A stretch of 40,000 nt of DNA. Source: an uncultured Actinomycetota bacterium (GTDB taxonomy: Bacteria > Actinomycetota > Actinomycetes > Actinomycetales > JBBAYJ01). Location: positions 296,237-336,236 of the forward strand of contig CAVVQD010000001.1 of assembly GCA_963750335.1 (NCBI GenBank). Direction: 5' to 3'. The notes under the pieces are model-generated. The model saw only the letters and a program-made list of their open reading frames with translations, was not told the DNA's origin and searched no databases. The position numbers and the translations under genes were made by a program. The number at the start of each line of letters is the position of its first letter. The stretch's first letter is position 1. Positions 4,238-32,254 of this stretch are shown one piece after another.

Positions 4238-5121
4238 ATGACCAGCATCGCCTACCTGGGTCTCGGCACGATGGGCCGCGGCATGGTCGCCACGCTCGCC
4301 GCGGCCGGCCACGACGTCACCGTCTGGAACCGCACGCCGACCGACGTCTCCGACCTCGGTGCCACCTCCGCGTCGAGCGTCGCCGACGCCCTGTCCGGCG
4401 CCGACGTCGTCCTGTACTGCCTGTCCGACGACACCGCTGTCCGCGCGGTCGCCCTCGGGCGAGGAGGGCGTGGCCGCGCTCGCCCGCCCCGACCAGGTCG
4501 TCGTCGACATGTCGACCATCAGCCCGGAGCTGTCGGACGAGGAGGCGGCCGCGTTCGCCGCGCGCGGGGTCCCGTTCCTGGACGCGCCGGTCTTCGGCTC
4601 CAAGGGCGAGGCCGCCGCCGGCGGCCTGTGGGTCGTCGTCGGCGGCGACGCCGACGTCCTGGCGCGGGTGCGGCCCGTGCTCGACGCGGTGGCCGAGAGC
4701 GTGCACCACATCGGCCCGCAGGGCTCCGGCGCGCGGATGAAGCTCGTCGGCAACCTCGTGGTCGCCGCCCAGCTGGAGGTGCTGGGGGAGTCCCTCAGCC
4801 TGGCCAGGGCCGCCGGGCTGGACCTGAGCAGGGTGCTCGAGGTCTTCGCGGCGACCGACTTCCGCTCGCCCATCTTCGACGGCGTCGGGCCGGGCGTCCT
4901 GGCCGACGACTACTCGCCCGCCTTCGCCCTGCACCTCATGGTCAAGGACGTCGGCCTGGTGCAAGGCCTTCGCGGGCAGCGTCGGCGCCGCCGTCCCCAC
5001 CGCCGAGGTCGTCGCGTCGTCGCTGGCCGGCGCGATGGACGCCGGCTACGGCGACGAGAACGCCTCGGCCCTCATCAAGGTCGTCGCCGGGCGGGCCGGG
5101 GTCGACCTCGCCCAGCGCTGA
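4238..5121 (+). pseudogene. NAD(P)-dependent oxidoreductase, 3-hydroxyisobutyrate/6-phosphogluconate dehydrogenase-like (beta-hydroxyacid dehydrogenase family). Needs two frame corrections.
   Basis: Rossmann N-terminus 'IAYLGLGTMGRGMVATLAAAGHDVTVWNRT' is in the frame of ORF 3596..5179. It continues as 'GEEGVAALARPDQVVVDMSTISPE...MKLVGNLVVAAQLEVLGESL...HLMVKDVGLV' in the frame of ORF 4359..6878. The C-terminus 'AFAGSVGAAVPTAEVVASSLAGAMDAGYGDENASALIKVVAGRAGVDLAQR*' is in the third frame (translated by hand). Frame changes lie near ~4459 and ~4965. Confidence 0.8.
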
Positions 5122-5136
5122 GGTGCGGCTCGAGCC

Positions 5137-5170
5137 GACCGGGCAGAACCCCCTGGGGTTCTGCCCGGTC
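5137..5170 (+). terminator. Strong GC-rich hairpin (perfect 16-nt inverted repeat) downstream of the dehydrogenase gene. Probable intrinsic terminator without a U-tract.
   Basis: 'GACCGGGCAGAACCCC'-CT-'GGGGTTCTGCCCGGTC' was read directly. It starts 16 nt after the stop at 5121 and ends 20 nt before the next start. Confidence 0.6.
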
Positions 5171-5189
5171 CGCTCGTAGGCTCCCCGGG

Positions 5190-8100
5190 GTGAGCGACGC
5201 TGCCCCGTATCTCCGGTATCCCACCGTCCGCGGCGACGTCGTCGCCTTCGTCGCCGAGGACGAGGTGTGGGCCGCCCCTACCGACGGCGGGCGCGCCTGG
5301 CCCCTGACCGCCGACCGGGCGCCGGTGGCCTTCGCGCACCTCTCCCCGGACGGCCGCCGGGTGGCGTTCACGAGCCGCCGCGAGGGGCCGCCCGAGGTGC
5401 ACGTCGCCGACCTGGACGGCGGCGGCGCGCGCCGGCTCACGTTCTGGGGCGACGACGTGACCCGGGTGCTGGGCTGGCTCGACGACGACCACGTGGTCGC
5501 GGCGACCCCGGCCGGGCAGGCGTCGCGCTGGGTGACGTGGGCCTACGCCGTGCCCGTCGACGGCGGTCCGGCCCGCCGCCTGCCGCTCGGACCGGTCTCC
5601 GGCTGGACCGCCCGCCCCGGCGGGGCCACGGTCGTGGCCACCGACGGCAACCGGCGCGGTGCGGCCGCCTGGAAGCGCTACCGCGGCGGGACCATCGGCC
5701 GGCTTCTGGCTCGACCCGACCGGCGAGGGGCGCTTCGACCGCTTCCTCGCCGAGGTGGACGGCCAGCTCGAGGACCCGGTGTGGACCGGCGACCGGCTGG
5801 CGTTCCTGTCCGACCACGAGGGCTGGGGCAACGTGTACTCCGTCGCCGCCGACGGCTCCGACCTGCGCCGGCACAGCGACCACGCCGACCGGTACGCCCG
5901 CGCCCTGTCCGGCGACGGCACCCGCCTCGTCCACGCCGCGCACGGCGACCTCTATCTCCTCGACGACCTCGACGACCCCGACGCGGGCCCCCGACGGCTC
6001 GACGTCGTGCTGCCGGGCACCCGGACCGGACGTCGTCCCGTCCCGGTCGACGTGGCCGAGGCGCTCGGCGACGTCGCCGTGGACCGCACCGGGCGAGCCG
6101 CGGCCGTCGAGGTGCGCGGCACCCTGCGCTGGCTGACCTCCCGCGACGGGCCGGTCCGGGCGGTCGCCGACGAGCCCGGCGTCCGGGTGCGGCTGCCCCG
6201 GGTGCTGCCGACGCCGGGCGAGGTCCCCGACCACGACCGGCCGCTCGTGCTCCGGGTCACCGACGCCCCCGGCGACGACGCGCTGGAGCTGGGGCCGGCG
6301 GACGGGTCGTCGGCGCCGCGCCGTCTCGCCGCCGGACGGCTGGGCCGGGTGCTGGACCTGGCCGTGTCGCCGGACGGGCACCGGGCCGCGGTGGCCAGCC
6401 ACGACGGCCGGGTCCTGCTCGTCGACCTCGCCGGCGACGGTCCCGACGGCCCAGACGCTCCCGACGGTCCGGACGAGCAGGTCGAGCCGGTCGTCCTGGC
6501 CGAGGGGCTGGAGAGCGACGCGACCGGGCTCGTGTTCTCGCCGTGCTCGGGCTGGCTCGCCTGGTCCCACCCCGGCACGCACCCGCTCCGTCAGCTCCGC
6601 CTGGCCGAGCTTGCGCCCGACGGCGGCGGCCCGGCGCGGGTCGTCGAGGCCACCCCGCTGCGCTTCGTCGACACCGACCCGGTGTTCACCGACGACGGGC
6701 TGCACCTCGCGTTCCTCTCGGTGCGGACCTTCGACCCGGTCTACGACGCGATGGCCTTCGACATGGCCTTCGTCGCCGCCCAGCGGCCCTACCTGCTGCC
6801 GCTGGCCGCGACCACCCCCTCCCCGCTGGACCCGTCGGTGGACGGCCGCCCGGTCGTCGACCCTCCGGCTGCCGCTGACCCCGGAGCCACCCCCGCCGCG
6901 CCCGCCCCCACGGTGGTCGACGTCGACGGCCTGCTCGCCCGCGCGGTGCCGCTGCCCGTGCCGGGCGGCCGGTACGAGGACCTGCAGGCGGCCGTCCACG
7001 GCCTGCTGTGGCGGGAGCCGCCGCTGGCCGGGGAGCTCGGCGAGTCCCGCCGCGCCCCGGACGACGAGCCCAAGGCCGCGCTGCGCCGCTTCGACCTGCG
7101 CACCCGCACCGTCGAGACCCTCGTCGAGGGGGTGCGCGGGGCCTGGGTGTCCGGCGACGGCACCCGCGTGCTCGTCCGCGGCGACGACGGGCTGCGGCTG
7201 CTGCCCGCCGACCGCAAGGTGCCCGCCGACGACACGCAGTCCGCCGTCACGGTCGACCTCGGCCGCGTCCGGGTCGTGGTCGACCCGGCCACCGAGTGGC
7301 GGCAGATGTTCGACGAGCAGGGCCGGCTCATGCGGGACCACTTCTGGGTGCCCGACATGGCCGGCGTCGACTGGGACGAGGTGCTGCGCCGCTACCGGCC
7401 CCTGGTCGACCGGGCGGCCACCCGCGACGACCTGTCCGAGATCCTGTGGGAGACGGTCGGCGAGCTCGGGTCCTCGCACGCCTACGAGACCCCGCCGCCC
7501 CGGCCCGTCGAGCCGCGCTGCGGCTCGGGCACCTCGGCGCGGACCTCGCCCGCGACCCCGACGGCACGTGGCGGGTGGCCCGGGTGCTGCCCGGCGAGCC
7601 CAGCGTCGTCGCCGCCCGCTCGCCGCTGCTGGCTCCCGGCGTCGGGGTGGGCGAGGGCGACGCCGTCGTCGCCGTCGACGGCCGCCCGGTCGATGCCGGC
7701 ACCGGGCCCGGCCCGCTGCTCGTCGGGACCGCGTCCCGGCCCACCGAGCTCACAATCCTGCCTGCCGACGGCGGCGAGCCACGCCGGGTGGTCGTCGTGC
7801 CGCTGGCCGACGAGCGGCCCGTCCGCTACCACGACTGGGTCTCCGGCCGGCGGCGCGCGGTGCACGAGGCGACGGACGGCCGGGTCGGCTACCTCCACGT
7901 CCCGGACATGGTGGCCAGCGGCTGGGCGCAGCTGCACCGCGACCTGCACAGCGAGGTCCGCCGCGAGGGCCTCGTCGTCGACCTGCGCGCCAACGGCGGC
8001 GGTCACCTGTCGGAGCTCGTGCTGGAGAAGCTGGCCCGCCGGGTCCGCGCCCAGACCGTGAGCCGCCACGCCGCCGCAGGAGACCTGGCCGAGCGACGCG

Positions 8101-8509
8101 CCCGCGCGGCCCGCTGGTCTGCGTGACCAACCAGTGGGCGGGCAGCGACGGGGACATCGGCACGTCGATGTTCCGCACGCTCGGCCTCGGCCCGGTGGTA
8201 GGGACGCGGACCTGGGGCGGGGTGGTCGGCATCGACGGGCGGTACACGCTGGTCGACGGGACCTCGGTCACCCAGCCCCGGTACGGGTTCTGGATGCGGG
8301 CCGAGGGGTGGGGGATCGAGAACCACGGCGTCGACCCCGACGTCGAGGTACCGCACCCGCCGCAGGCGTGGGCGGCGGGGGAGGACCCGCAGCTCGACGC
8401 CGCCGTCGGTCTGGTGCTCGAGGCGCTCGCGTCCGCCGAGCCGGTGCCCGAGCCGGAGTGGCGGACTCGGCCCGACCGGTCGGCCCCGGCGCTCCCGCCG
8501 CGCCGGTGA
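5190..8509 (+). pseudogene. Tricorn protease homologue (WD40/beta-propeller + PDZ + S41 peptidase). Needs about four frame corrections.
   Basis: GTG at 5190 ('VSDAAPYLRYPTVRGDVVAFVAEDEVW'). The gene reads through four frame segments:
- 'WKRYRGGT' in frame 0
- 'WLDPTGEGRFDRFL...SSHAYE' in the frame of ORF 5659..8061
- 'LGADLARDPDGTWRV...GYLHVPDM...VVDLRANGGGHLSELVLEKLARR' in the frame of ORF 7008..8126
- a short 'TWPSDAP' piece, then 'GPLVCVTNQWAGSDGDI...TRTWGGVVGIDG' in the frame of ORF 6611..8509
Frame changes lie near ~5704, ~7515, ~8068 and ~8105. Confidence 0.8.
6436..6474 (+). repeat. Imperfect 9-bp tandem repeat (about 4 units) inside the tricorn homologue, encoding (D-G/A-P)n
   Basis: 'GACGGTCCC GACGGCCCA GACGCTCCC GACGGTCCG GAC' encodes 'DGPDGPDAPDGPD'. 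It is in frame and coding, and looks like a low-complexity linker insertion. Confidence 0.7.
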
Positions 8510-8614
8510 CCGCGGCCGTGGCGCTCTCCCGGCCGAGGCGCGGCGGCGGTCGTCCCGCGGCGCCCTGCCCGGACGTGGTGCCCGGTTGTCGGACCCGGGC
8601 GGGAGGCTGACCGC

Positions 8615-9217
8615 GTGGCGGAGCAGGCGCAGGAGCTGACGGTCCCCGACGTCGACGCGTGGCGGGAGTGGCTGGCCGACAACGTCGACCACCAGCCCGG
8701 GGTCTGGCTCACCCTGGCGAAGAAGGGCACGACCACCCCCACGAGCCTCACCTACGCCCAGGCGCTGCAGGAGGCGCTGTGCCAGGGGTGGATCGACGGG
8801 CAGGCCAAGAGCATCGACGAGCAGATCTACCGCCAGCGGTACACCCCGCGGCGGGCTCGGAGCATCTGGTCCGCCCGCAACGTCGGCTACATCGAGAAGC
8901 TCACCGCCGAGGGGCGGATGCAGCCGCAGGGCATCGCCGAGGTCGAGCGGGCCAAGGCCGACGGCCGCTGGGCCGCCGCCTACGAGGGCCCGGCGTCCAT
9001 CCAGGTGCCCGACGACCTGGCCGCCGCCTTCGAGGACGAGCCCGCCGCGAAGGCCCTGTTCGACGAGCTCGACGCCCAGAACCGGTACGCGGTGTTGCAC
9101 CGGGTCACCTCGGCGGTCCGCCCGGAGACCCGAGCCAAGCGCATCAGGGCCAACGTGGCCATGCTCGCCCGGGGCGAGACGCCCTTCCCGCGGCGGATGA
9201 AGCGCACCAGCCGCTGA
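8615..9217 (+). CDS. YdeI/OmpD-associated family protein
   Basis: Intact 200-aa ORF (GTG start). 'TYAQALQEALCQGWIDGQ', 'RQRYTPRRARSIWSARN' and 'NRYAVLHRVTSAVRPETRAKRI' match the YdeI-type family pattern. Confidence 0.7.
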   Translation: MAEQAQELTVPDVDAWREWLADNVDHQPGVWLTLAKKGTTTPTSLTYAQALQEALCQGWIDGQAKSIDEQIYRQRYTPRRARSIWSARNVGYIEKLTAEGRMQPQGIAEVERAKADGRWAAAYEGPASIQVPDDLAAAFEDEPAAKALFDELDAQNRYAVLHRVTSAVRPETRAKRIRANVAMLARGETPFPRRMKRTSR

Positions 9218-9275
9218 GCGGCGGCGGTGTGCGCGCGCCGCTGAACTGTCGCGTCTGGGCGCGGTCGGGCCCCGC

Positions 9276-9755
9276 TCAGACCCCGAGCGCCTTCCGGACC
9301 GACGGCGGGCACGGCCCCGCGTACCGGCGCATCTGCTCGGCGTCGAGGACCACGCGCCGGTCCGTGCGCAGCCAGCTCGTCCCGGGCCTCGGTGACCAGC
9401 CCTGCCGCGGCATGGCCAGCCACCCCGGCCGGCCGGTCTTGTCGGTGCTGGTCACGTAGAGAACCACGCACCGGCGCCCGTGGGTCTCGACCACGACGCA
9501 GGGCCGGTCCTTGCTGCCGGTGCCGTCCTCGAACGGCACCTCCGCCCACCACACGTCCCCGGTCTCCGGCCGGGTCCGGACGGCCCGCCCTGTCGGCCGG
9601 CCGCCGGTACGCCGGGAGGGCGGTCGTCGGGTGGCCCGACGAACCGCTCCCCACAGCACGAGAAAGGCCAGGACGACTACGGCCCAGATCGGGGTCGGGT
9701 CGTCGATCAGCGACAGGGGCCCTGGTGACCCACCCGACAACCCCATGGACATCAC
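9276..9755 (-). CDS. PemK/MazF-like (toxin-fold) protein with an N-terminal transmembrane anchor
   Basis: 'GDVWWAEVPFEDGTGSKDRPCVVV' is the typical N-terminal PemK/MazF strand motif. It is preceded by the hydrophobic helix 'IWAVVVLAFLVLWGAV' and an Arg-rich linker. The start is uncertain (MMSM...). Confidence 0.6.
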   Translation of the reverse strand: MMSMGLSGGSPGPLSLIDDPTPIWAVVVLAFLVLWGAVRRATRRPPSRRTGGRPTGRAVRTRPETGDVWWAEVPFEDGTGSKDRPCVVVETHGRRCVVLYVTSTDKTGRPGWLAMPRQGWSPRPGTSWLRTDRRVVLDAEQMRRYAGPCPPSVRKALGV

Positions 9756-9996
9756 GGTGGCACCCCTACGGCTGCCCCGTCCCGCACTCTCCGCGGGTGC
9801 GTTGCCCTAAGACACAAAACGGTAACGGTGCGCTCAACCGGACTATCCGCCCTCCCGCCGCCCGGCATGCTCTCCCCGGGGTGAGGGGTGCGTGCCGACT
9901 GGCGCGAGCGGGGGGCCGAACGAGGGTCGAGCCGTGCTGCCAGCGTGCGCTCGCCTCTGGTCCCGTCCACAGCAGTCCTTTGAGCAGGAGATACCC

Positions 9997-10803
9997 ATGT
10001 CTACGCAGTACCCGCCGGCCACCCAGCCCGGCCCCGCCGGTGACCCCACCCCCTACGGTGCCCCGGCGCACGCCCCTCAGGGCACCGACACCGTGTCTGT
10101 CCTGGGCTTGGTGTTCGCTTTCTTGTTCTGGCCGGTCGGGCTCATCCTCAGCATCGTCGGCATCACGAGGACGGGCAAGGGCAAGCGGAACGGGCGCGGC
10201 CTCGCGATCGCCGGACTGGTCGTGTCGCTGCTGGCAGGCGTCGTGGCCATTGCCGTGATCGCCACTATCGCGAGCGCCGCCGACAACGCTGCGACTGAGC
10301 TCGATGCGGCCGGCGATCAGTTCCAGGAGGACATGGCGGAGCTTGAGGCGTCCGCGGACGCGTTGGCTCCTTCGGCTCCCGCCGACGCGGCAGCCACCGA
10401 GGAGGTAGCGGTCAGCGTGGGTCAGCCGGCCACAGTCGGCGACGTCACCTTCACCGTCAACTCCGAGGAGTGCGGCGCCACCTCGGTCGGGGACGAGAAC
10501 TTCGGCGTGACGGCGCAGGGCACCTACTGCTTCTTCGGTGTGACGGTCCTCAATGGCAGCACGGAGCCTTTCCTCTTCGACAGCTCAAGCGTCACCGGGT
10601 ACCTCGGCGAGGCTGAGTACAGCGCCGACGGCGAGGCCGCCATCTACCTGCCTGACAACGACGCGTTCCTGGAGGAGATCAACCCCGGGAACACCGTCAC
10701 CGCCACGGTCGTCTTCGACGTGCCCGCCGGTGCTCAGCTCAATCGCCTCGAGCTGTCGCCCGGCTTCCTTTCCAGCGAGCGTGCTGTGGTGACGCTCCGC
10801 TGA
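9997..10803 (+). CDS. DUF4190 (N-terminal membrane) + DUF4352 (Ig-like) domain protein
   Basis: ATG at 9997 with a 'GAGCAGGAG' RBS. Pro-rich N-terminus, two TM helices ('VSVLGLVFAFLFWPVGLILSIVGI', 'LAIAGLVVSLLAGVVAIAVIA'), then 'VGDVTFTVN...GTYCFFGVTVLNGSTEPF...TVVFDVP', typical of DUF4352. Third-position GC is visibly lower than in the neighbours. Confidence 0.65.
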   Translation: MSTQYPPATQPGPAGDPTPYGAPAHAPQGTDTVSVLGLVFAFLFWPVGLILSIVGITRTGKGKRNGRGLAIAGLVVSLLAGVVAIAVIATIASAADNAATELDAAGDQFQEDMAELEASADALAPSAPADAAATEEVAVSVGQPATVGDVTFTVNSEECGATSVGDENFGVTAQGTYCFFGVTVLNGSTEPFLFDSSSVTGYLGEAEYSADGEAAIYLPDNDAFLEEINPGNTVTATVVFDVPAGAQLNRLELSPGFLSSERAVVTLR

Positions 10804-10821
10804 TTTCGGCCAGCGTGGAGG

Positions 10822-10853
10822 GCCCGCGGACCATCAGGTCCGCGGGCTTTCTG
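10822..10853 (+). terminator. Intrinsic terminator-like hairpin after the DUF4352 gene
   Basis: 'GCCCGCGGACC'-ATCA-'GGTCCGCGGGC' (perfect 11-bp stem) is followed by 'TTTCTGCTG'. It sits in the convergent intergenic gap. Confidence 0.6.
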
Positions 10854-10886
10854 CTGTCTCGACGCGCGACATGTCCGTCCCGCATC

Positions 10887-11849
10887 TCACGACAACCAGA
10901 ACCGTCGCCAGGGGGCCGACGGCCCGCGACGGGTCGCCGCCTCACCCTCGGCCAGGTCGAGCCCGCGCAGCGACGGGGTGCCGCGGACCGCGTGCGCGAG
11001 GTGCTGGTGCGCCCAGTCCTCGTCGTGGTCGTGCTCCCGGTCGTCTCGGCCGCACACCAGCACCCACTGCGTCCGGCCGCGGGTGCGGGCGTGGATCACC
11101 GTCATCGGGCTCTCCCCGTCCAGCACGACGTGGCGGCAGGCGGCCGCGAGGTGCTCGGCCGGCGTCCCCAGCTGCCAGCCGGGGTCGGCGGCCACCCCGT
11201 CGGTGGGCACGGCCGGGGCACGCCACCCGGGGGGCTGCTCCGCCGAGGTGTCGCGCCCGCCCGGCTGCCACCCGAACACGCCCTGGGCGTCCGGCCACAC
11301 CAGCTGCAGCGCGCGCGGCGGGCGGCGGTGCAACCACGAGGACAGCCGCACCGTCTCGTCCGCCGCGGCGGGGGTGAGCTCGTCGACCACCAGGGGGTGC
11401 CAGGCGAGGGCGCCCTCCACCACGGTCCCCACGGCCAGCCGGTGCCCGCCCACCACCACCCGCTCCGCGACGTCATTGAGCACCTGCGCCATGAGCGCGA
11501 GGGGTTGTCCCGACATCAGCAGCTCGGGGTGGCCGGCCCGGTGGCCAAGCCCGACCGTGTAGACGAACGCCGGGTCGTCCCCGCTCGCGCCCACCCCGGT
11601 GAGGTGCCAGCCGGCGGCCCGCACGTTGCGCAGGACCGGTCCGCCGGTGTCGTCCGGGGCGCTGCTGTCACGACCCGGCCGGCAGAGCCGGCACGTGCAG
11701 CCGCGCGCGACCGGCCTCCGGCGGGCGGCCACCGCCCCGGGCGACGGGTCCGGGCGCAGCGCTGGACGGAGCGCGGTCGCGGGCAGGACGGCGTTGTCGC
11801 GGACCGCGCAGCCGCAGGTGCAGGTGCGCTCGGACGGGGTGCGGCTCAT
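10887..11849 (-). CDS. DUF4262 domain protein with a Cys-rich N-terminal region and a C-terminal extension
   Basis: This is the C-terminal 320 aa of the 746-aa ORF 10887..13127. 'VLRNVRAAGWHLTGVGASGDDPAFVYTVGLGHRAGHPELLMSG' matches the DUF4262 core and is preceded by 'CTCGCA...CTCRLC'. The ATG at 11849 is the first Met after the upstream gene's stop, so the start is uncertain. Confidence 0.6.
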   Translation of the reverse strand: MSRTPSERTCTCGCAVRDNAVLPATALRPALRPDPSPGAVAARRRPVARGCTCRLCRPGRDSSAPDDTGGPVLRNVRAAGWHLTGVGASGDDPAFVYTVGLGHRAGHPELLMSGQPLALMAQVLNDVAERVVVGGHRLAVGTVVEGALAWHPLVVDELTPAAADETVRLSSWLHRRPPRALQLVWPDAQGVFGWQPGGRDTSAEQPPGWRAPAVPTDGVAADPGWQLGTPAEHLAAACRHVVLDGESPMTVIHARTRGRTQWVLVCGRDDREHDHDEDWAHQHLAHAVRGTPSLRGLDLAEGEAATRRGPSAPWRRFWLS

Positions 11850-11901
11850 CCCGGGAGGGTGCGCCGGACCCCGGACACAAGGCCCCGCGACGCCGCGGGC
11901 C

Positions 11902-13127
11902 TCAGCCCAGCGCGGCGGCCAGCGCCCCGAGCAGCCGGTCCACGTCCTCGTCGTCCGTGTACGGCGCCACCCCGATCCGCAGCCCGCCCTCGTCGCCCAG
12001 GCCGAGCCAGCGGCTGGCCTCCAGGGCGTAGAAGTGCCCCGCGGGGGCGTTGACCCCGGCCGCGGCCAGGGCGTGCATGAGGTCGGCGGCCGGACGGTCC
12101 GCCGAGGTCGGCGAGCAGCGTCGGGGTGCGGGACGCGGCGCGCGACCAGACGGTAGCCCCAGGTCGAGCAGACCGGTCTCGATGCGCTCGCGGAGCCGGT
12201 CCTCGTGCTCCTCGAGCACCGCCATCGCGGCGAGGAGCCGGGCCCTGCGGTCGCCTTCGGTAGCGGCCGGCGCCAGGGAAGCCAGCAGGTCGATCGCGGC
12301 GGTGGTCCCGGCGACGAGCTCGTACGGCAGGGTGCCCAGCTCGTAGCGCTCCGGGACGGCGTCGGAGCTGGGGAGCAGCTTGTCCGGGCGGAGCTCCTCG
12401 AGCAGGTCCGGCCCGGCCGGTGAGCACGCCGTGGTGCGGGCCCAGGAACTTGTACGGCGAGCAGACGAAGGTGTCGGCCCCCAGCGCGGCGACGTCGACC
12501 GCGGCGTGCGCAGCGAGGTGGACCCCGTCCACGTGCACCAGCGCCCCGGCCTCGTGCGCGACGGCGGCGACCGCGGGCAGGTCCGGGCGGGTGCCGATGA
12601 GGTTCGACGCCCCGGTCACGGCGACCAGGCGGGTCCGCGGGCCGACGACGGCGGCCACCTCGGCGGGGTCGAGCTCGCCGGTCGCCGGGTCGAACGGCGA
12701 CCCAGCGGACCGTCGCGCCGACGGCCTCGGCCGCGAGCACCCAGGGGCGGATGTTGGCGTCGTGGTCGAGCCGGGTGACGACCACCTCGTCGCCGGGACC
12801 CCAGCCCTGCGACAGCGTGCGCGCCAGCTGGAAGGTCAGCTCGGTGGCGCTGCGCCCGAGCACCACCGTGTCGGCCGGCACCCCGAGCAGGTCGCCGAGC
12901 GCGGCCCGCCCGCCCCGGACGATGACGTCGGCGTTGCGGGCGGCCTGGTTCACGGTGCCCCGGTTCGACAGCGGCGCCAGCAGGGCGTCGCGGACCGCGT
13001 CGGCGACCACGTCGGGGGTCTGGGTGCCGCCCGGCCCGTCGAAGTACGCGGTGCGGTCGGCGAGCTGGGGGAAGTGCGCGCGCAGGGCGGCGACGTCCAG
13101 GGCGTGCGCGGTCGGGAGGTCGGTCAC
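11902..13127 (-). pseudogene. Class-V aminotransferase / cysteine desulfurase family protein. Needs about four frame corrections.
   Basis: The gene reads through these segments:
- N-terminus 'LRAHFPQLADRTAYFDGPGGTQTP...VVTRLDHDANIRPW' in the frame of ORF 10887..13127
- 'FDPATGELDPAEVAAVVGPRTRLVAVTGASNLIGT...VHVDGVHLAAH...CSPYKFLGPHHGVLTG' in the frame of ORF 11846..12658
- 'PDLLEELRPDKLLPSSDAVPERYELGTLPYE...MAVLEEHEDRL' in the frame of ORF 11902..12225
- a short excursion ('ATVWSRAASRTPTLL'), then back to 'AADLMHALAAAGVNAPAGHFYALEA...*'
Frame changes lie near ~12695, ~12414, ~12156 and ~12098. Confidence 0.8.
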
Positions 13128-13285
13128 GACCGCGATCGTGCCGTGCCGGGCGGCCGCGCGCCGCTCGGTCCAGGGCGCGTCCGGTGATACCGACGCGGCA
13201 TCCCCAGCGCGCTGGAACCGGTCGGGGTGACCGTGTGCCTCCCTGCACGCTCGTCCGCGTCTGCGCGGGACGCCGGTGTGCGCCG

Positions 13286-13531: not shown

Positions 13532-13649
13532 GGGGGACCTCTTCCATGACGATGTGGTGGACGCCGTCTACTGTCTCGTGCCTCAGGACCCGAACCGGGT
13601 GCCGCGCGTCAAACGGAAATCTGCTCCCAGGGGGCTACGTCGCCCGCCA

Positions 13650-21832: not shown

Positions 21833-21847
21833 ACCTGCTTGAGTTTT

Positions 21848-22884: not shown

Positions 22885-22973
22885 CGACCCCCGCCGTGGA
22901 CGGTGGTGCGCAGGCACCACGGCACGTCCACAGATCGGTCCGTCAGGGTGTCCCAGGCCTCGCGCCCCCCGGC

Positions 22974-25120
22974 ATGCTGGTCGTCGTGCCCGTCACCACC
23001 GAAGATCTCCGCCGGCTGGACCCGGACGGCCTCGCCGTCGTCCTCGCGCTCCGCCCGGACGTGCTCGGCCCGACCGACCCGCGCTCGTTGGCGGAGGTCG
23101 CTGCCCGGCTGAGCCACCACGCGTCGCTCGAGCGGGCCGTGCGGACCCTCGACACCCCGACCCTGCAGGTCGCTCGTGCGCTGGTGCTCCTCGGCTGCCA
23201 CGACGACCCGACCGCGCTGCCGCGCCTCCTGCGCCTCACCCGCGCGGAGGAGCTGGACGCGCTCGAGGACTGCCTCCAGGTGCTCGACCACCTGCTGCTG
23301 CGGGAGGACTGCGGCTGCCTGGCCGACGGCCTCGCCGAACGGTGGACGCCCTACGGGCTCGGCCCGTCCGTCCTCCGGTCGCTGGGCTGGCGGACGGGCG
23401 AAGGGCTGCGCCGGGCGCTGCGTGCGTGGGGCGAGCCCACCGAGGGGGACACGCTGGCCTTGGTCGAGCGGCTGGCCGCGGTCCTCACCGACGGCGAGCG
23501 GGTGCGACGGGCGCTGCGGCAGGCACCTGAGGCGGACCGTCGGCTGCTGGCGGAGGCCGCAGCGCGGGACGGGACGGTGGCGCTGGGGCGAACGACCTCA
23601 GGCGGCCGCGGTCCGGGTCCGGGGGACTGGCTCGTCGAGCGGGGGTTCCTCGACGCCGACGGTCCGGACCGGCTGCCGGCCGAGGTGACCATCGCCCTGC
23701 GCGGGCCGTCGTGGCGGCCGCCGTTCGACGGCAGCAGCCTCCCCTACCGACCACGGACCTGCCGCGGGAGCTGGTCGACCGCGAGGCTGCGGCGGCGGCG
23801 AGGCGCTGGCTCCGGCTGATGACGGACCTGGTCCGCAAGGCCGGCCGCACCCCCGTGCGCCTCAACCGGGACGGCAGCCTCGGCGTCCGCGAACGGGGCC
23901 GTCTCGCGGGGATGCTGCGCGCCGACCCCGGCCAGGTGAGCCTCGCGGTGGCCCTGGCCTTCGCGGCGGGGTTCCTCGCTCACCTCGACCAGCACCTGTC
24001 CCCGACCGCGGAGGCGTCCGGGTGGGCGGGCCTGCCCCCGGCGCAGCGCCACGCGGAGGTCGTCCTCGTCTGGCTCGGCCTGCAGCAGGAGGTCCTCGCC
24101 GACGCGGGGACGAGCTGGTGGCCGGCGTCCCACCTCACCTTCTCCGGCAGCAAGCACGTCCTGCTGCGGGTGCTGGCCGCCGTACCCGACCAGGCTGCCG
24201 TCGACGTGGCCGACCTGGTGCGGCTGCTCGCCTGGCTGTCCCCGGCGCGGCTCGGCGAGGGGGACGGCCCGGCGCTGGTGCAGGGTGCGCTCGACGAGGC
24301 GGCTGCGCTCGGGGTCGTCGGCGCGGGGGCGCTGTCGAGCCTCGGCCACGCGCTGATGAACGGGTCCGACGCCGAGCCGGTGCTGGGTCGGTGGCTCGGG
24401 GCCGCGGCGTCGGTCGCCCGCCTGCAGGCCGACCTCACCGCGGTGGTCCTCGGGGACCCCTCGCCGCGCCTGGCCCGGGTGCTCGACCTCCTCGGTACCC
24501 GTGAGGCGAGCGACGAGGCCTCCACGTGGCGGTTCGACGCCCGGTCGGTCGCCCGCGCCCTGGACGCCGGGCACACCGTGGACGGACTGCTGGGCGCGCT
24601 CGCCTCGGTCGCCGAGGGCGAGGTGCCGCAGCCTCTCTCCTACCTGGTCCGGGACACGGCACGGCGCCACGGGGTGCTGCGGCTGGGGGCGGCGTCGTCG
24701 TACCTGCGCTCCGACGACCACGCGCTCCTCGCCGAGATCGCCGCGGACTCCCGGCTGCGGGGCCTGGGCCTGCGGCTGCTCGTCCCCGGGGTGCTCGTCG
24801 CGGACGCGACCCCCGAGCAGACCCTGGCCCGGGTCCGGGACGCCGGCTTCCTGCCCCTGCACGAGGACGGCGACGGCGACCCGGTCCGCCCCGAGGGCAG
24901 GGCCGCTCTGGCTGTCGTGCCCGAGCAGGACGACCCCACCTGGCGGGAACCGACGGTCGGGTCGTCCCCGCAGGACGCTGCGGCCGCGGTGCGCGAGCTG
25001 CCCGTCGAGGCGCCGGGGCCGCTGCTCGACACCGGCCAGAGCGTCGTCGACCGGCAGGCATGGCACGAGCTGGTGCTCAACGAGGCTCGTAGGCGGGTGA
25101 CGGACGCCCCGGTGCGATAG
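22974..25120 (+). pseudogene. Helicase-associated (Helicase_C_3 type, XPB-neighbour family) DNA-binding protein. Needs one frame correction.
   Basis: 'MLVVVPVTTEDLRRLDPDGLAVVLALRPDVLGPTDPRSLAEVAARL...' in ORF 22419..23819 continues as '...LPTTDLPRELVDREAAAAARRW...WRFDARSVARALDAGHTVDGLLGALASVAEGEVPQPLSYLVRDTARRHGVLRLG' in ORF 23711..25120. The frame change lies near ~23745. Confidence 0.65.
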
Positions 25121-25173: not shown

Positions 25174-25873
25174 GTGACGGACAAGCGAGCCCTGGTCGTG
25201 CGCGGCGGCTGGGACGGCCACCAGCCGGTCGAGGCCACCGACCGGTTCATCCCGTTCCTGCGCGAGCCACGGCTACGACGTCCGGGTCGAGGAGTCGGCC
25301 GCGGTCTTCGCCGACGGCGACTACATGGCCGGGGTCGACCTCGTCGTCCACTGCGTGACCATGAGCACCATCGAGGCCGACGAGGTCGCCGGCCTGCGGG
25401 CCGCGGTCGCGGCGGGCACGGGGCTCGCGGGCTGGCACGGCGGCATCGCCGACGCCTACCGCGGCACCTCGGACTGGCTGCAGCTGGTCGGCGGGCAGTT
25501 CGCCGGGCACCCGGGCAAGCACCCCGACGAGCGCACCGGTGAGCAGTCCGACAACTACGTGCCGCACCGGATCGAGATGACGGCGGCCGCGGCGGAGCAC
25601 CCGATCACGGCCGGGCTGTCGCGACTTCGACCTGGTGACCGAGCAGTACTGGGTGCTGGCCGACGACTACGTCGACGTGCTCGCCACCACCACCCAGGCC
25701 GTCCTCGGCTGGGAGCCGTGGCACCGGCCCGTCACCTCCCCGGCGGTGTGGACGCGCGCCGTGGGGCGCAGGGCCGGGTGTTCGTCTGCACGCCGGGGCA
25801 CCGGGTCGAGGTCCTCGACGACACGAACGTGCGCACGCTGGTCGAGCGCGGGCTGCTGTGGGCGAGCCGATGA
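25174..25873 (+). pseudogene. ThuA domain protein (trehalose-utilisation-like). Needs at least three frame corrections.
   Basis: The gene reads through these segments:
- 'KRALVVRGGWDGHQPVEATDRFIPFLRE' in the frame of ORF 25174..25542
- 'HGYDVRVEES...VVHCVTMSTIEADEVAGLRAAVAAGTGLAGWHGGIADAYR...QFAGHPG...HPITAGL' in the frame of ORF 25325..25873
- 'DFDLVTEQYWVLADDYVDVLATTT...PAVWTRA' in the frame of ORF 25635..25937
- 'GRVFVCTPGHRVEVLDD...RGLLWASR*'
Frame changes lie near ~25267, ~25621 and ~25761-25773. Confidence 0.8.
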
Positions 25874-26950
25874 GGGTCGGCATCGTCGGCTGCGGCGCCA
25901 TCGTCGGGCAGTACCTCGAGACGTTCGCCCGGCGTGAGCGCGGTCGACCTCGTCGCCGTCGCCGACCGGGACCCGGCCAGGGCGCAGACGGTCGCCGCCC
26001 AGAGGCCCGGGGTGCGGGCGCTGAGCGTCGACGACCTGCTCGCCGACGACGCAGGTCGACGTGGTCCTCAACCTCACCGTCCCCGCGGCGCACGCCGAGG
26101 TCGGCCGGCGCGTGGTCGCGGCCGGCAAGCACCTGTACGGCGAGAAGCCGCTGACCGCCACCACGGCCGAGGCGGTCGAGCTGCTCGATGCGGCCCGCGC
26201 CGCCGGGGTGCTCGTCGGCTGCGCCCCGGACACCGTCCTGGGGACGGGCGTGCAGACCGCGCGCAAGGCGCGTCGACGACGGGCTCGTCGGGGCCCCGGT
26301 CTTCGCTACCGCGACCATGATCACGGCGGGCCACGAGCGCTGGCACCCGGACCCGGACTTCTACTACGTGCCCGGCGGCGGGCCGCTCATGGACATGGGC
26401 CCGTACTACGTGACCACGCTGGTGACGCTGCTCGGGCCGGTCTCGTCGGTCGTCGGGGCGGGCAGCCGCACCCGGGGCGAGCGGACCATCGCCACCGGCC
26501 CGCGGGCCGGGCAGAGCGTGCCGGTCGACCACGGACACGCACGTGAGCGCGGTGCTCACGCACGCGTCGGGGGTGCTGTCGACGCTGGTCATGAGCTTCG
26601 ACGGGGTGGCCACCCGCACGCCCAACATCGAGGTGCACGGCGAGCGGGGCAGCCTCGTGCTGCCCGACCCCAACTACTTCGACGGCGAGGTCCGGCTCCG
26701 CACCCTGGACCAGGACGACTGGTCGGTGCTGCCGATGTCGGCCGGGTACGAGGACGCGGGCCGCGGCTACGGCCTCGCCGACATGGCGCGCACGCCCGCC
26801 GGGCAGCCGCACCGGGCCAGCGGCGAGCTCGCGCTGCACGTGCTCGAGATCATGGAGTCCGTGCTCGCCTCGGCCGCGAGCGGGACGTCGGTGACGCTGC
26901 GGAGCACGGTCGAGCGGCCTGCGGCGGTGCCGCTCGGGTCGCTGCCCTGA
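25870..26950 (+). pseudogene. Gfo/Idh/MocA family oxidoreductase. Needs four frame corrections.
   Basis: The gene reads through these segments:
- 'MRVGIVGCGAIVGQYLETFAR'
- 'SAVDLVAVADRDPARAQTVAA...'
- 'QVDVVLNLTVPAAHAEVGRRVVAAGKHLYGEKPL...'
- 'VDDGLVGAPVFATATMITAGHERWHPDPDFYYVPGGGPLMDMGPYYVT...'
- 'TDTHVSAVLTHASGVLSTLVMSFDG...*'
The pieces come from ORFs 25858, 25934, 26061, 26188 and 26543 in turn. Frame changes lie near ~25932, ~26051, ~26271 and ~26530, and all are in the same (+1) direction. Confidence 0.85.
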
Positions 26951-26957
26951 GGGAGCC

Positions 26958-27360
26958 GTGAGCAGCTGCTGGGTCTTCCACGCCACCCCGAGGGGGAGCC
27001 GGGTCCTCGAGGACCTGAGGGGCGGGGAGGTGACGACCCGGCGCTGCGTGACGCAGCACGCCCGCGACATCCGGGTCGGGGACGGCGTGCTGCTGTGGCT
27101 GAGCGGGCCGGGCGCCGGCGTCTACGCGATCGGGACGGTCGCGGAGGACGTCGTCGAGGACGTGAGCCAGATGGGCACGCGGCCCAGCCGGTCCTGCCTG
27201 CTCAGGTGGGACGAGGTCCGGCCGGACGACCCCATCAGCAAGGCCCGGCTGCTCGCGGTCGGTGGGTTCGCGCAGGCGCGCATCGTCCGTCAGCCCATGG
27301 GCGGCAACCCGCTGCGGTTCGACGCCAGAGGAGTGGGACGTGGTGCAGGCCCTGCGGTAG
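26958..27360 (+). pseudogene. EVE/PUA-like domain protein (probable). Needs one frame correction near the C-terminus.
   Basis: 'SSCWVFHATPRGSRVLEDL...IRVGDGVLLWLSGPGAGVYAIGTV' fits the stand-alone EVE-type pattern. The natural end 'EEWDVVQALR*' (TAG at 27358-27360) is one frame off from '...GNPLRFDA'. The frame change lies near ~27325. Confidence 0.5.
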
Positions 27361-27365
27361 CGGGC

Positions 27366-28031
27366 TCAGCGGCTCGCGCGGGCCAGCGGGGTGCCGTCCA
27401 GCGCGTGCCGGAAGGCCACCAGCGAGTCGAAGACCTGCAGGACGCCGGCCTCCTGCAGCTCGCCGACCGAGAAGCCGCCGGTGCGCACCCCGAGGGTCGG
27501 CATCTGCAGCTTGGCCGCCGCCTGGGCGTCGTAGACGGAGTCGCCGACCATGACGCCGCTGCGCGCCCTCCGACCTTGGCCAGCGCGGCCGCCAGAGGTC
27601 CGGCTCGGGCTTGCTCTTCTGCACGTCGTCGGAGGTGGTCCAGGCGTCGGCGAGGGACTTGCCGTCGATCAGGTCGAGGAAGGCCTCGACGTGCTCGGTC
27701 TTCCCGGAGCTGGCCAGCACGAGCCGGAACCCGCGCTCCTTGACCTCGGCGAGCAGCTCGTGCGGCGCCCTCGAAGGGCTGGACCTCGCCGATCAGCTCG
27801 TCGAACTCCTCTGTCCAGGCGTCGCGCAGCTCGTCGCCGTGCGCCTGCTCGACCTCCGGGCCGGCCACCTCGGTGACGAACAGGTCCCCGCCCATGCCGA
27901 TGGCGCGGTGCGAGGCGCCACAGCGGCCGGGTGATGTCGAAGCGGCGGAACGCCCGGAACCAGGCGAGGGCGTGCTGGTAGTTGGTGTCCACGAGGGTGC
28001 CGTCGACGTCGAAGATCGCGGTGTCGGCCAT
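27366..28031 (-). pseudogene. HAD-superfamily hydrolase (phosphatase). Needs four frame corrections.
   Basis: The gene reads through these segments:
- 'MADTAIFDVDGTLVDTNYQHALAWFRAFRRF' (DxDGT motif I)
- 'HRAIGMGGDLFVTEVAGPEVEQAHGDELRDAW...'
- 'HELLAEVKERGFRLVLASSGKTEHVEAFLDL...SKPEPDL'
- 'LAAALAKVGG'
- 'VMVGDSVYDAQAAAKLQMPTLGVRTGG...*'
The pieces come from ORFs 27669..28031, 27290..27895, 27235..27720, 27290..27895 and 27366..27551 in turn. Frame changes lie near ~27918, ~27765, ~27600 and ~27563. Confidence 0.8.
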
Positions 28032-28165
28032 GGTTGACGTCCTACCCCGGGTCCGTACGGGTACTCAGAGACCGGCTCCTTCTGGCGACGCGAGCGACGA
28101 CGGGCCCCCGGCGCGCCACCGGCCCGCCCCCGAGGAGGGGACGGGCCGGTGCCGAGCGAGGCGGG

Positions 28166-30099
28166 TCAGCCCACCGGGTACCGCACGAGGTACGCGGGGT
28201 CCTCGTAGTTGTCCGGGTCGCCCACGGGCGGGATCCCGTCGACGCGGTCACCCACCCCGTTGACGATGTGGTTGATGATCCCGGGCCCGCTGAGGTTCTT
28301 CGTCATGATGTGGTTGAGGACGACGCCGGGGGTCTGCGGCACCTCGTAGCCGTTCTCGGTGACGATCGACGGGTTGTTGCGGTTGAACACGTAGACGCCG
28401 CCGCCGGTCAGGGTGTGCGTCTTCACGTCGTCGGCCACCTTGTACGCGGCCCAGCCCAGCGTGCCGTCGTCCGCGGTCCAGTCGGCCTGGGTCGGCGGGT
28501 CGTAGGGCAGCTCGTTCTGGAAGAACAGCACCTGGCCGCCCTCGCCGTTCCAGACGACGTTGTGCTCCTGGAAGTGCTCGACGAAGAACCCGGTCGCGGT
28601 GACCCGGTCGCCGTTGACGACCACGCCGTTGCGACCGGTGTTGGTCCGCCAGCGCACGTTGTCGCCGAAGACGCCGTCGGTGCGGTCGAAGCCCTCGATG
28701 CCGTGGTCGGCCCGCCACACCCAGGTGTGGTCGACGAGCACGTCGTCGCTGTTGATCTCGAGCGCCACGTCGGTCTTGCCGACGTAGGGCCCGCCGACGC
28801 GGAAGTACACGTCGGACAGCGTGGTCGGGTTGCTCGCGCTGGACTTGTTGGCCGCCGAGGGGCCGTTCGGCCTTGCCGACGCGGAGCAGCGCGGGCGACT
28901 CGACCGCGCCGGCGTCGACGGTGAGGCCGGCGACGACGACGCCCGGGACGTCGGCGACGGTCAGCGGCACGGAGCCGCCGACGGAGTGCAGCGTGGCCAG
29001 GCCGAGGCCGAGCACGACCGTGTCCGGCACGCTTGACCGCGATGCTCTGCGCCACGTCGTAGACGCCGGGGGTGAGCAGCAGGTGCTTGCCGCGGGCGAG
29101 CTGGTTGTTGATGACCTGGACGCAGTCGCCCGGCTTCGCGACGTAGAAGTCGGTGAGCGGGACGGTGCGGCCCGCGGTCTGGCCGTCGGCCCAGGTGATG
29201 CCGCGGGTGCCGGTCCGCGCGGACGGCACGCGCACCTGGTAGGCGCCCTTGCGGTCGAGGAACAGGTACGGCTTCTCGCGGCTCAGCGGGGTGGTCGCGA
29301 GGGTCGTGTACGGGACGGTCGGGTAGTCCGCGTCGTCGGGGGCGCCGACGACGCCGGAGAAGACCTGGTTCCAGACGGCGTTCGACCAGCCGCCGACCTG
29401 GCTGTCGCGGGTGAAGTACTGCTGCTGCGACCCGTTGACGACGGTGCCCTCGATGCGGGAGTCGGCGATGAAGCCGCCGCTGGCGAACGACGGCTGGGTG
29501 CAGTAGTCCATGAGGCTCGTGGTGCCGCCGCGCAGGTCGACCCGGCGCATGGAGACCGCCTGCGAGGCGGCCCAGAAGTTGGCCGAGTTGGCGCAGCCGT
29601 CGGGGCCCTGCTTGGTGATGTCGATGGTGAGGTTGGAGACGCCGCGCCAGAAGTTGTTGAGCGCGAAGCACCCGATGAACTCCGGGTTGGTCGGGTCGTC
29701 GAAGCACTGGTTGTAGACCTCGACCGCACCGTTGATGACCACGTCGCCGGGCTGCGCGCCCAGGCCGATCACCTCGGTGTAGTAGCCGACCTTGATCTGC
29801 AGCGGCGCGGCGTCGGTGCCGTACACGCCGGGCTCGAAGAGCAGCGCGTAGCGGTCGCTGCCCATCTCGGCCCCGACCTGCTCGGCGTAGACCGCGTCGA
29901 CCGTCGCCTGGATCTCGCCGACCGGCATGCTCGGGTCGAACACGATCGTGCCGGGACCGAGGTCGGGGTCGGTGGCCGAGGTGCTGGGGGGCGGGGCGGC
30001 CGAGGCGGCGGCGACCGGCACGAGGGCCAGCGCGACTCCGACGACCAGGGCCTGGCCGAGCCGTCGTGCGGTGCCGCCGCGGGGTGCCCGACCGAGCAT
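28166..30099 (-). pseudogene. Secreted pectin-lyase-fold (right-handed beta-helix) protein, probably a glycoside hydrolase. Needs two frame corrections.
   Basis: ATG at 30099 with signal peptide 'MLGRAPRGGTARRLGQALVVGVALALVPVAAASA'. Then '...IKVGYYTEVIGLG...NFWRGVSNLTI...YDVAQSIAVK' (frame of ORF 28423..30792), 'PDTVVLGLGLATLHSVGGSVPLTVADVPGVVVAGLTVDAG...LLRVG' (ORF 28248..29030) and 'SNPTTLSDVYFRVGGPYVGK...DHTWVWRADHG...*' (ORF 28166..28810). Frame changes lie near ~29038 and ~28855. The exact enzymatic family is not resolved by eye. Confidence 0.6.
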
Positions 30100-30303
30100 G
30101 GCTGTTCTCACCGATGGACTCCTTCGTCCTGTGGGCTGGGGTCGTCCGCGCCGTCCGGCATGGTGCTGGGCCGTTCGGGTGAGCGGACAGCCGAACTGTC
30201 GCACGTCGCGGCCACGGCGGCGAGAGCGCGGCCGCCCCTTCTGTCCGACGTCCTGGCTAGCGTCCGGAGCCCACGGACGACCGACCGACGGAAGGGGACC
30301 GCC

Positions 30304-30885
30304 ATGGTCCACGTGCTGCTGTTCCACCACGCCCTCGGGCTCACCCCCGGCCTGCTCGAGACGGCCGAGCGGCTGAGGTCGGAGGGCCACGAGGTGACGA
30401 CACCGGACCTGTTCGAGGGCCGGACGTTCGCCACCGTCGAGGAGGGTGTCGCGCACGCGTCGGAGACGGGTTTCGGCACCCTGATGGAGCGGGGGGTCGC
30501 GGCCGCGGACGGGCTGCCCGCCGACCTCGTCTACGCGGGCGTCTCGCTCGGGGTGATGCCCGCCCAGCAGCTCGCGCAGACCCGGCCCGGGGCCCGCGGC
30601 GCGGTGCTGCTGGAGGCCGCCGTGCCGACGAGCGAGTTCGGGGGCTGGCCGGCCGGCGTGCCGGTCCAGGTGCACGGGATGGACGCCGACGCGTTCTTCG
30701 CCGACGAGGACCTGCCGGCCGCGCAGGCCCTCGTCGAGGAGGCGTCGGCCGGGGCGTCGGCCGAGCTCTTCCTCTACCCGGGCGACGGGCACCTGTTCGT
30801 CGACCCGTCCTCGCCCGCCTACGACCGGGACGCCGCGGAGCTGGTCCTCACCCGGGTGCAGGGGTTCCTGCGCGGGCTGGGGTAG
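30304..30885 (+). CDS. Dienelactone hydrolase family protein
   Basis: The ATG at 30304 is the start, in the tail of ORF 28873..30885. 'MVHVLLFHHALGLTPGLLETAERLRSEGHEVTTPDLFEG...YAGVSLGVMPAQ...LYPGDGHLF' is present and the frame is intact. Confidence 0.7.
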   Translation: MVHVLLFHHALGLTPGLLETAERLRSEGHEVTTPDLFEGRTFATVEEGVAHASETGFGTLMERGVAAADGLPADLVYAGVSLGVMPAQQLAQTRPGARGAVLLEAAVPTSEFGGWPAGVPVQVHGMDADAFFADEDLPAAQALVEEASAGASAELFLYPGDGHLFVDPSSPAYDRDAAELVLTRVQGFLRGLG

Positions 30886-31045
30886 CCGACCGGCCGGGCA
30901 CGGCCAGGTACCGCCGGGGCGGCCTGCTGCCTCAGGCGGCGAGGGCGTCGGTCACCTCGCGGGAGCCGTCCAGGGTGACCACGTGCACGCCGAGCAGGTG
31001 CGGCCCGCCCTCGCAGGCCCGCTGCGCGGCGCGCCGACGACCAGG

Positions 31046-32254
31046 TCAGCCGACGACCCGCACGCCGTCCTTCCACACCTCGCGGACCCGGTCGCGCAGC
31101 CCGTCCAGCTGCAGCGCGTCGCCCTCGACGACGACCACGTCGGCGCGCAGGCCCGGCGCCAGGCGTCCGACCTGGTCCTGCATCCCGAGCAGCGCGGCCG
31201 CCCCCGACGTGGTCGCGGCCAGCACCTGCGCGGGCGTCATGCCGCCGGCAGCCATCAGGGGCAGCTCGTCGAGGTTGGTGCCGTGCGGGGACACGGCCGC
31301 GTCGGTGCCCATCGCCACCTTGACCCCGGCGGCGACGGCGCGGGCGAAGGAGTCCCGGTGCACCTCGACCACGCCGCGCGCCTTGGTCACGCTCGACTCG
31401 GGGATGGACGCCCCCGCCTCGGCGGCCTTGATGACCGCGAGGGGCGCGGACAGCGTCGGCACGAGCCAGGTGCCGTGGGCGAGCATGAGCTCGATCGCCT
31501 CGTCGTCCAGGTAGATGCCGTGCTCGATGGACCGGATGCCCGCGCGGACGGCGTTCTTGATGCCCGGGCGCGCCCTGCGCGTGCGCCATCACCGAGGCGC
31601 CCTGGGCGGCGGCCTCGGCCACCATCACCTCGAGCTCGGCGGGGGAGAAGTGGGCGTGCTTGCGGGTCGTCGGTGGGGGAGAGGACGCCGCCGGTGGTGT
31701 GGACCTTGATGACGTCGGCGCCGGCCCGCAGCATCTGCCGCACGGTGCGCCGGACCTCGTCCGGGCCGTCGGCCAGCCCGGACGGGCGCCCCGGGTGGGG
31801 GACGAAGAACTCCAGGTGCGTGCCGGAGGGCAGCCAGTCGTCGCCGTGCCCGCCGGTGATGCTCAGCGGGGCGACGGAGATCTGCATCCGGGGCCCGGCG
31901 ACCAGCCCGTCGTCGACGGCCTTCTTCACGCCGAGGTCGGCCCCGCCGGCGTCGCGCACGGTGGTGATGCCGGCCGCCAGGGTGGCGCCGAGGTTCTGGA
32001 CCGCCTCGTAGAAGGAGTAGCTGAACGGGGTGTACGCCATCCGCAGCGAGTCGACGCTGGTGACCATCACGTGCACGTGGCAGTCGAGGAGGCCGGGCAG
32101 CACGGTCGTGCCCGTGCAGTCGACCTCGACGTCGCCGTCCAGCCCGGTGCCGACGTCGACGACCCGGCCGTCCTCGACGACCACGTCGCCGGCGCGCGGG
32201 CCCGGCACCCGTCCCGTCGAAGACGGTGCCGCCGGTGAACAGGGTGCGGGTCAT
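31046..32254 (-). pseudogene. Amidohydrolase family protein (metal-dependent, HxH 'DCHVHV'). Needs three frame corrections.
   Basis: The gene reads through these segments:
- 'MTRTLFTGGTVFDGTG'
- 'GDVVVEDGRVVDVG...VLPGLLDCHVHV...TTVRDAGG...IKVHTTGGVLSPTDDP'
- 'KHAHFSPAELEVMVAEAAAQGASVMAHAQGAPG'
- 'IKNAVRAGIRSIEHGIYLDDEAIELMLAHGTWLVPTL...KVAMGTDA...*'
The pieces come from ORFs 31625..32368, 31387..32208, 30819..31628 and 31046..31486 in turn. Frame changes lie near ~32200, ~31672 and ~31563. The start overlaps the epimerase stop (ATGA). Confidence 0.8.

Follow-up and report, generated by a model that had tools for sequence, protein, structure and literature searches.

Clustered one-base frame breaks in 11 genes of an actinomycetal contig very probably reflect assembly consensus error

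Real pseudogene decay in bacteria, for example in Mycobacterium leprae, is accompanied by stop codons, deletions, eroded codon bias and accelerated divergence, and bacterial pseudogenes have a deletional bias. Replication slippage and contingency-type variation target homopolymer runs. Gene-fragmenting insertions and deletions (indels) are also a documented problem of long-read and hybrid assemblies, for which dedicated correction tools exist (Kastor, PMC12007338; proovframe, 10.1101/2021.08.23.457338); one-base indels of this kind split conserved open reading frames (ORFs), are visible only against intact homologues, inflate pseudogene counts and, where polishing is poor, reach a density of the order of 1 per kb. 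Errors of PacBio continuous long reads (CLR) are described as stochastic, with substitutions, insertions and deletions in a ratio of about 22:45:33 (PMC9713900), errors of Nanopore assemblies are mostly homopolymer deletions (PMC12007338), and the closing of gaps with long reads can insert inaccurate sequence (DENTIST, 10.1101/2021.02.26.432990). Here we analyze a 40,000-nucleotide stretch of DNA from an uncultured Actinomycetota bacterium (assembly GCA_963750335.1, contig CAVVQD010000001.1, positions 296,237 to 336,236; hereafter the window), in which 35 one-base frame breaks, located between positions 4458 and 32194, interrupt 11 genes. We propose that these breaks are very probably errors of base calling or consensus in the public assembly, left behind by uneven polishing of noisy long reads or of gaps filled with long reads.

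The window has a G+C content (GC) of about 75%, and its third codon positions are about 96% G+C, so that the reading frame is legible from base composition alone. A Viterbi reading of third-position G+C (GC3) periodicity over six frames of the whole window placed frame switches within gene-sized stretches at 4435, 4963, 5704, 7513, 8094, 12409, 12693, 15205, 16373, 17807 and 18145 in the first half, and at 23748, 25266, 25621, 25764, 25926, 26050, 26267, 26532, 27555, 27763, 27911, 28866, 29031, 31560 and 31660 in the rest. When the frame segments were joined, the resulting proteins covered Pfam models from one end to the other, junctions included: NAD_binding_2 (positions 1-161 of 161), Aminotran_5 (2-371 of 371), SLFN-g3_helicase (1-350 of 354), ResIII (2-164 of 164), ThuA (1-206 of 209), GFO_IDH_MocA (1-117 of 120), HAD_2 (2-178 of 178) and Peptidase_S41 (1-165 of 165). 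Events were located with a purpose-written frameshift-tolerant protein-to-DNA aligner, for which the references were orthologues from relatives (74-92% identity) and, for the dehydrogenase, the sequence of PDB 3pdu. Every orthologue used agrees on each event, and most of the 11 genes carry two to four of them, the Helicase_C_3 gene carrying only one (Table 1). Apparent frameshifts at 22883 (C-terminus of the HEPN protein) and 8504 (C-terminus of the tricorn protease) were discounted as alignment end effects, as was an apparent event at 28047, which lies upstream of the HAD start ATG. An initial annotation, made from the DNA letters alone, had counted roughly 35 one-base frame changes in both directions and in about 14 genes. 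The Viterbi switches lie no more than a few bases from the positions listed there. Orthologue alignment returns 35, at near-identical positions, and homology confirms 11 of the genes, with the putative lipoprotein and EVE-like genes lacking such confirmation; the earlier counts per gene were nearly all right, except that the SauUSI-like gene has four breaks and not two.

Table 1. Frame-broken genes, event-free stretches and other features of the window. For events, i denotes an extra base and d a missing base.
Feature	Coordinates	Strand	Events or content
3-hydroxyisobutyrate-dehydrogenase-family gene	4238..5118	+	4458i, 4962i (approximate); 2 events
Tricorn protease gene	5190..8509	+	5706i, 7514d, 8073i, 8101i
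Class-V aminotransferase gene	11905..13172	-	12695i, 12409i, 12155d, 12109i
Alpha/beta-hydrolase-like C-terminal remnant	13600..13887	+	
Putative lipoprotein	13900..14432	-	suspected single frame switch ~14150, codon periodicity only
DUF2075 / Schlafen-group-3 helicase gene	15054..16933	+	15072i, 15209d, 16360d
SauUSI-like PLD-helicase-DUF3427 gene	16985..20065	+	17216i, 17242d, 17808d, 18145i; 3' 1.9 kb clean
Helicase_C_3-domain gene	22974..25120	+	23731d only
ThuA gene	25174..25873	+	25264i, 25622i, 25761i, 25768i
Gfo/Idh/MocA oxidoreductase gene	25858..26950	+	25933i, 26051i, 26271i, 26527i
EVE-like gene	26958..27370	+	frame break ~27320 without homology support
HAD hydrolase gene	27369..28032	-	27911i, 27763i, 27596d, 27564d
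Secreted beta-helix (LAM55 pectate-lyase-like) gene	28169..30111	-	29025i, 28874i
Amidohydrolase gene	31049..32254	-	32194i, 31662i, 31568i
Event-free stretch	1..4457		ABC ATPase end, two permeases, DhaK, DhaL, dehydrogenase start
Event-free stretch	8102..12108		tricorn 3' end, OmdA, PemK-like toxin, DUF4352, DUF4262, aminotransferase 3' end
Event-free stretch	18146..23730		SauUSI-like 3' two-thirds, ABM, GlcD-like oxidase, NTase, HEPN, Helicase_C_3 5' end
Event-free stretch	29026..31567		
Event-free stretch	32195..40000		epimerase, DUF2306, MarR, acs, membrane protein, histidine kinase, response regulator
PemK/MazF-like gene	9279..9582	-	inside event-free stretch
Nucleotidyltransferase (NTase) + HEPN pair	21881..22884	+	inside event-free stretch
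Open frame between epimerase and DUF2306	33165..33513	-	

Once their frames are restored, the 11 genes encode proteins that align well with those of relatives. The restored dehydrogenase, which also covers NAD_binding_11 (1-121 of 122), aligns with residues 1-281 of PDB 3pdu, and a three-frame reading places its junctions at GGG[c]GAG and GTG[c]AAG. The four sites in the tricorn protease gene are agreed by three orthologues (P0001, P0003 and P0004), and the restored protein contains no stops, shares 923 of 1087 residues (85%) with P0001 and is 82-85% identical to its orthologues overall. Identity is 79-80% both for the aminotransferase (orthologues L081 and L082) and for the DUF2075 helicase (P0241, P0242 and P0244), whose SLFN-g3_helicase match spans the junction. 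Residues 1-1016 of the SauUSI-like protein align as one stretch to proteins of about 1030-1050 amino acids; relative to the orthologue in Aquipuribacter sp. MA13-6 (L089), its N-terminal part is 92% and its C-terminal part 87% identical. The Helicase_C_3 protein, with its one event, is 74% identical to the L087 orthologue, and the ThuA protein is 83-85% identical to the L085 and L087 orthologues. For the Gfo/Idh/MocA oxidoreductase (76-88% identity), all four sites are agreed by P0121 (87.6% identity), L085 and L087. The HAD hydrolase is 82.5% identical to the L087 orthologue, and the beta-helix protein and the amidohydrolase are respectively 82% (over 644 amino acids) and 90% (over 401 amino acids) identical to the L085 orthologues. 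In the four relatives, the orthologues of the broken genes are all single intact ORFs. The SauUSI-like gene of MA13-6, which is split into 756 and 271 amino acids, was considered as a parallel inactivation and rejected, as a run of about 150 N lies at 14089-14240 of that sequence.

Two further genes had been listed as broken. In the putative lipoprotein gene, overlapping minus-strand ORFs (13971-14432 and 13900-14157) with a change of GC3 phase do suggest the single switch proposed near 14150; a homologue was sought for confirmation and none was found. The break proposed in the EVE-like gene is likewise suggested by codon periodicity only and was not confirmed by homology: the match to the EVE profile is weak and partial (34-76 of 145, E=4.7e-5), and the fetched loci of relatives contain no orthologue.

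Several observations concern the surroundings of these genes. The DUF2075/Schlafen-like helicase gene is followed directly by that of the SauUSI-like enzyme, and the pair is kept in Aquipuribacter sp. MA13-6 (L089 10001-15055). The SauUSI-like protein is 87-92% identical to its MA13-6 counterpart and the neighboring DUF2075 protein just 80%, a gap in sequence identity that may hint that a defence module was exchanged recently. The alpha/beta-hydrolase-like remnant has no N-terminal counterpart nearby, is 48% identical to L071 9086-9385 and itself seems to shift frame once. Unlike the other broken genes, it may be a genuine gene remnant.

The broken genes carry none of the expected marks of decay. 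No in-frame stop was found in approximately 5,900 codons of restored genes. A random substitution in these codons has a 2.2-2.9% chance of yielding a stop. Had the indels built up neutrally, each alongside five or more substitutions, 4-10 stops would be expected, with a probability of at most 0.02 of observing zero. The GC3 of the broken genes (96.1%) is close to that of the clean genes (96.9%). When the same reference genomes are used for both, the broken genes are 74-90% identical to their orthologues and the clean genes 63-83%; because identity is not lower for the broken genes, they have not diverged faster. The earlier impression that the restored proteins are free of stops and obvious decay therefore holds in all these measures.

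The spectrum and context of the indels provide further clues to their origin. There are 26 insertions and 9 deletions (binomial p=0.006). Half of the 24 testable insertions have no possible placement inside any homopolymer; the other 12 could sit in a run of two or three bases, and none in a run of at least four. None of the 72 homopolymer runs of at least five bases in 4225-32260 carries an event, and the event sites contain no simple-sequence tract or repeat. Because no preference for homopolymers is seen, the events are expected to come from neither replication slippage nor a homopolymer-type platform error, and we rejected homopolymer-driven error or slippage as their cause. Some events of the same direction lie very close together (25761 and 25768, 7 nucleotides apart; 8073 and 8101, 28 nucleotides apart), and these pairs look like bursts of noise, not like compensating mutations. 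The events sit at a GC of 0.744, against a background value of 0.746 (p=0.63), and the GC-richest part of the window, at 37-39 kb, is clean. GC-dependent dropout of short reads was thus rejected as the cause of the affected regions, and the suggestion that short-read coverage had dropped there finds no support in GC.

The events are also unevenly spaced. When 35 events were placed randomly over coding sequence totalling 35.5 kb in 20,000 simulations, the four largest gaps summed to 14.1 +/- 1.9 kb, compared with the observed 21.8 kb (P=5.5e-4). Counted per kb, the real events have a variance/mean ratio of 1.95 (P=1.4e-3), and 23 of the 40 1-kb bins hold no event (P=1.8e-3). Uniform random error is a poor fit, as the initial annotation had argued. 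Restricting the same measures to 4225-32260 gives P values of 0.001-0.03. The density averages about 1.3 indels per kb over 4.4-32.2 kb and reaches about 6 per kb at 25.3-27.9 kb, with a peak of 16 events in 25.26-27.91 kb. The clustering is statistically real but moderate, and what we observe is uneven density, not three sharply bounded blocks. The initial annotation had drawn three such blocks of broken genes separated by clean sequence. The checked genes outside them are indeed intact, with no comparable indel density upon alignment, but the bounds were too sharp and the clean gaps are wider and less regularly arranged than drawn: long clean stretches lie inside the blocks (5707-7513, 18146-20059, 23732-25263 and 29026-31567), and these internal gaps are just moderately unlikely by chance. 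Specifically, orthologue alignment detected no frameshift in the genes for OmdA, DUF4262, ABM, NTase, HEPN, DLH, epimerase, DUF2306, MarR and the GlcD-like oxidase. Full-length Pfam matches were obtained for two permeases, Dak1, Dak2, acs, the histidine kinase and the response regulator; in the first event-free stretch these include BPD_transp_2 twice, Dak1 (2-312 of 313) and Dak2 (2-172 of 174). Salmonella Acs (PDB 2p20) and the acs product align collinearly across residues 5-651.

Based on these data, we propose that the contig derives, wholly or partly, from noisy single-molecule reads, whose errors would be mainly random one-base insertions and deletions. Such errors would be expected to persist in parts of the consensus that are covered by few reads or missed by polishing. 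Possible settings are a locally low depth, gaps between short-read contigs that were filled with long reads, or a bridge built from a handful of reads, and well-supported stretches would be left error-free. Each stray base would shift the frame, causing gene callers to output fragments or wrong-frame ORFs, which a GC of 75% would leave open for hundreds of codons. The 26:9 excess of insertions, together with the random context, agrees with the raw-read statistics of PacBio CLR (PMC9713900) and not with the homopolymer pattern reported for Nanopore or HiFi (PMC12007338), and the platform may have been CLR-like. We infer that the indels are not present in the living organism. Of the two options raised by the initial annotation, regional failure of assembly or polishing is therefore favored over genuine clustered inactivation by the direction and context of the indels, the unchanged GC3 and the undiminished identity.

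The window resembles the assemblies addressed by Kastor and proovframe in the features described at the outset. It differs in that its indels are not homopolymer-associated, are biased toward insertions and are concentrated in part of the contig. With the gap closing treated by DENTIST (10.1101/2021.02.26.432990) it shares kilobase-scale stretches of low accuracy between clean sequence, but here the boundaries are diffuse and no N run, repeat, rRNA, tRNA or insertion sequence (IS) marks a likely former gap. No tRNA, Rfam RNA or significant repeat was detected within the 40-kb window, and neither was a mobile or IS element, rRNA or N run that could mark an assembly join or former gap.

Some points weigh against consensus error. 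Residual errors in polished CLR, HiFi and Nanopore consensus are usually described as homopolymer-associated (PMC12007338); the indels described here are not, and the exact source of error is for this reason uncertain. The classic cause of uneven polishing, which is the dropout of short reads at extreme GC, lacks support because the events show no link to GC. That the indels are absent from the organism is also an indirect conclusion, no second sequence of the species having been found. Searches for exact matches to the acs protein and to the tricorn fragment of the window found no second copy of the organism. The GlcD-like protein, when compared with a genome collection, had a best identity of 67% among the matches listed, and the beta-helix protein had a best identity of at most 79% in metagenomes; neither search yielded a same-species sequence.

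It is also conceivable that the indels are real. Very recent inactivation, through relaxed selection or a burst of error-prone repair, would have introduced some 35 genuine one-base indels over a 28-kb neighborhood and left 11-13 young pseudogenes. Some observations favor this scenario: the indels are clustered beyond chance, they stand in the public record (P0019), and the truly degraded hydrolase remnant indicates some real decay in the region. Nevertheless, we consider it very unlikely. Several hits in each already dead gene imply a long neutral time, yet stops are missing, GC3 is the same and identity is undiminished. An insertion excess of 26:9 and an avoidance of homopolymers are the opposite of spontaneous indel spectra and of the deletional bias of pseudogenes, as generally understood. 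Furthermore, the genes hit include those of housekeeping type (tricorn protease, aminotransferase) and are interleaved with intact neighbors, and their orthologues are intact in 4/4 relatives. Reductive genomes of the M. leprae type offer a parallel, in that many neighboring genes are frameshifted in a high-GC Gram-positive organism, but the stops, deletions, eroded codon bias and accelerated divergence that mark such genomes are all missing from the window. A localized shower of real one-base insertions over approximately 28 kb, produced in a single episode of error-prone repair or break-induced synthesis too recent for other decay to have accumulated, has if anything a slimmer chance still; if it were true, the mutational signature would be unusual.

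Other explanations place the error on a different platform or in the decoding of the message. An artefact of a platform whose errors are driven by homopolymers (Nanopore R9, 454, Ion Torrent or HiFi) instead of CLR-like noise is improbable, if less so than real indels. Long-read assembly errors are most often reported as homopolymer indels (PMC12007338), and the 12 insertions that could sit in two- or three-base runs would be compatible with such an origin. The absence of any event placeable in a run of four or more, the equal number of insertions outside any run, and the 72 unaffected longer runs argue against it, as does the dominance of insertions: Nanopore consensus errors are mostly deletions, and deletions outnumber insertions in most of the assemblies shown in the excerpt of Table 1 of PMC12007338. 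Under programmed ribosomal frameshifting the frame changes would be read through, and under phase variation they would toggle at contingency repeats. We assign this possibility almost no weight, since the orthologues are uninterrupted single ORFs at the same positions, no simple-sequence tract occurs at the sites, and 35 sites in 11 unrelated genes, of both +1 and -1 type, are incompatible with any known recoding system.

Consensus error thus remains our preferred account of the frame breaks, and other features of the window and its relatives are described here for completeness. The window is Aquipuribacter-like: proteins nearest to its own come from A. hungaricus, A. nitratireducens, Aquipuribacter sp. 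MA13-6 and a genome submitted under the name 'Jannaschia sp. R86511', at 74-92% amino-acid identity, and gene order is conserved in part between these relatives and the window. The last of these genomes (GCA_042466345.1, 4.68 Mb; L082 and L087) contains actinobacterial genes that are 74-85% identical to, and syntenic with, those of the window. As Jannaschia is an alphaproteobacterial genus, the organism name on this assembly looks wrong. Within event-free stretches, the PemK/MazF-like gene (E=6e-9) and the NTase and HEPN pair, whose adjacency is kept in A. hungaricus (L085 5063-6088), are predicted to be genes of toxin-antitoxin type. The open frame between the epimerase and DUF2306 genes has coding-like GC3 and would encode a low-complexity peptide rich in Ala, Gly, Ser and Val that matches no family. 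Rather than a gene, the frame may be a wrong one that high GC leaves open.

These data have allowed us to recover intact proteins from a contig in which many genes appear broken, and they indicate that GC3 periodicity combined with orthologue-guided frameshift alignment recovers true proteins from very GC-rich DNA. They also illustrate that error density can differ several-fold inside one contig. The finding is a known data-quality problem and no new biology; its value lies in a practical warning for annotation, and its scientific interest is otherwise low. The expectation that automatic annotation of this region would be misled is already realized, as an 800-amino-acid tricorn fragment (P0019) from the contig, which is 675,357 bp long, sits in the public protein set. 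Of all genes in the window, one quarter to one third would receive annotations as pseudogenes, as fragments or as hypothetical proteins in a wrong frame, and pseudogene counts, pan-genomes and metabolic reconstructions that use this contig would be distorted.

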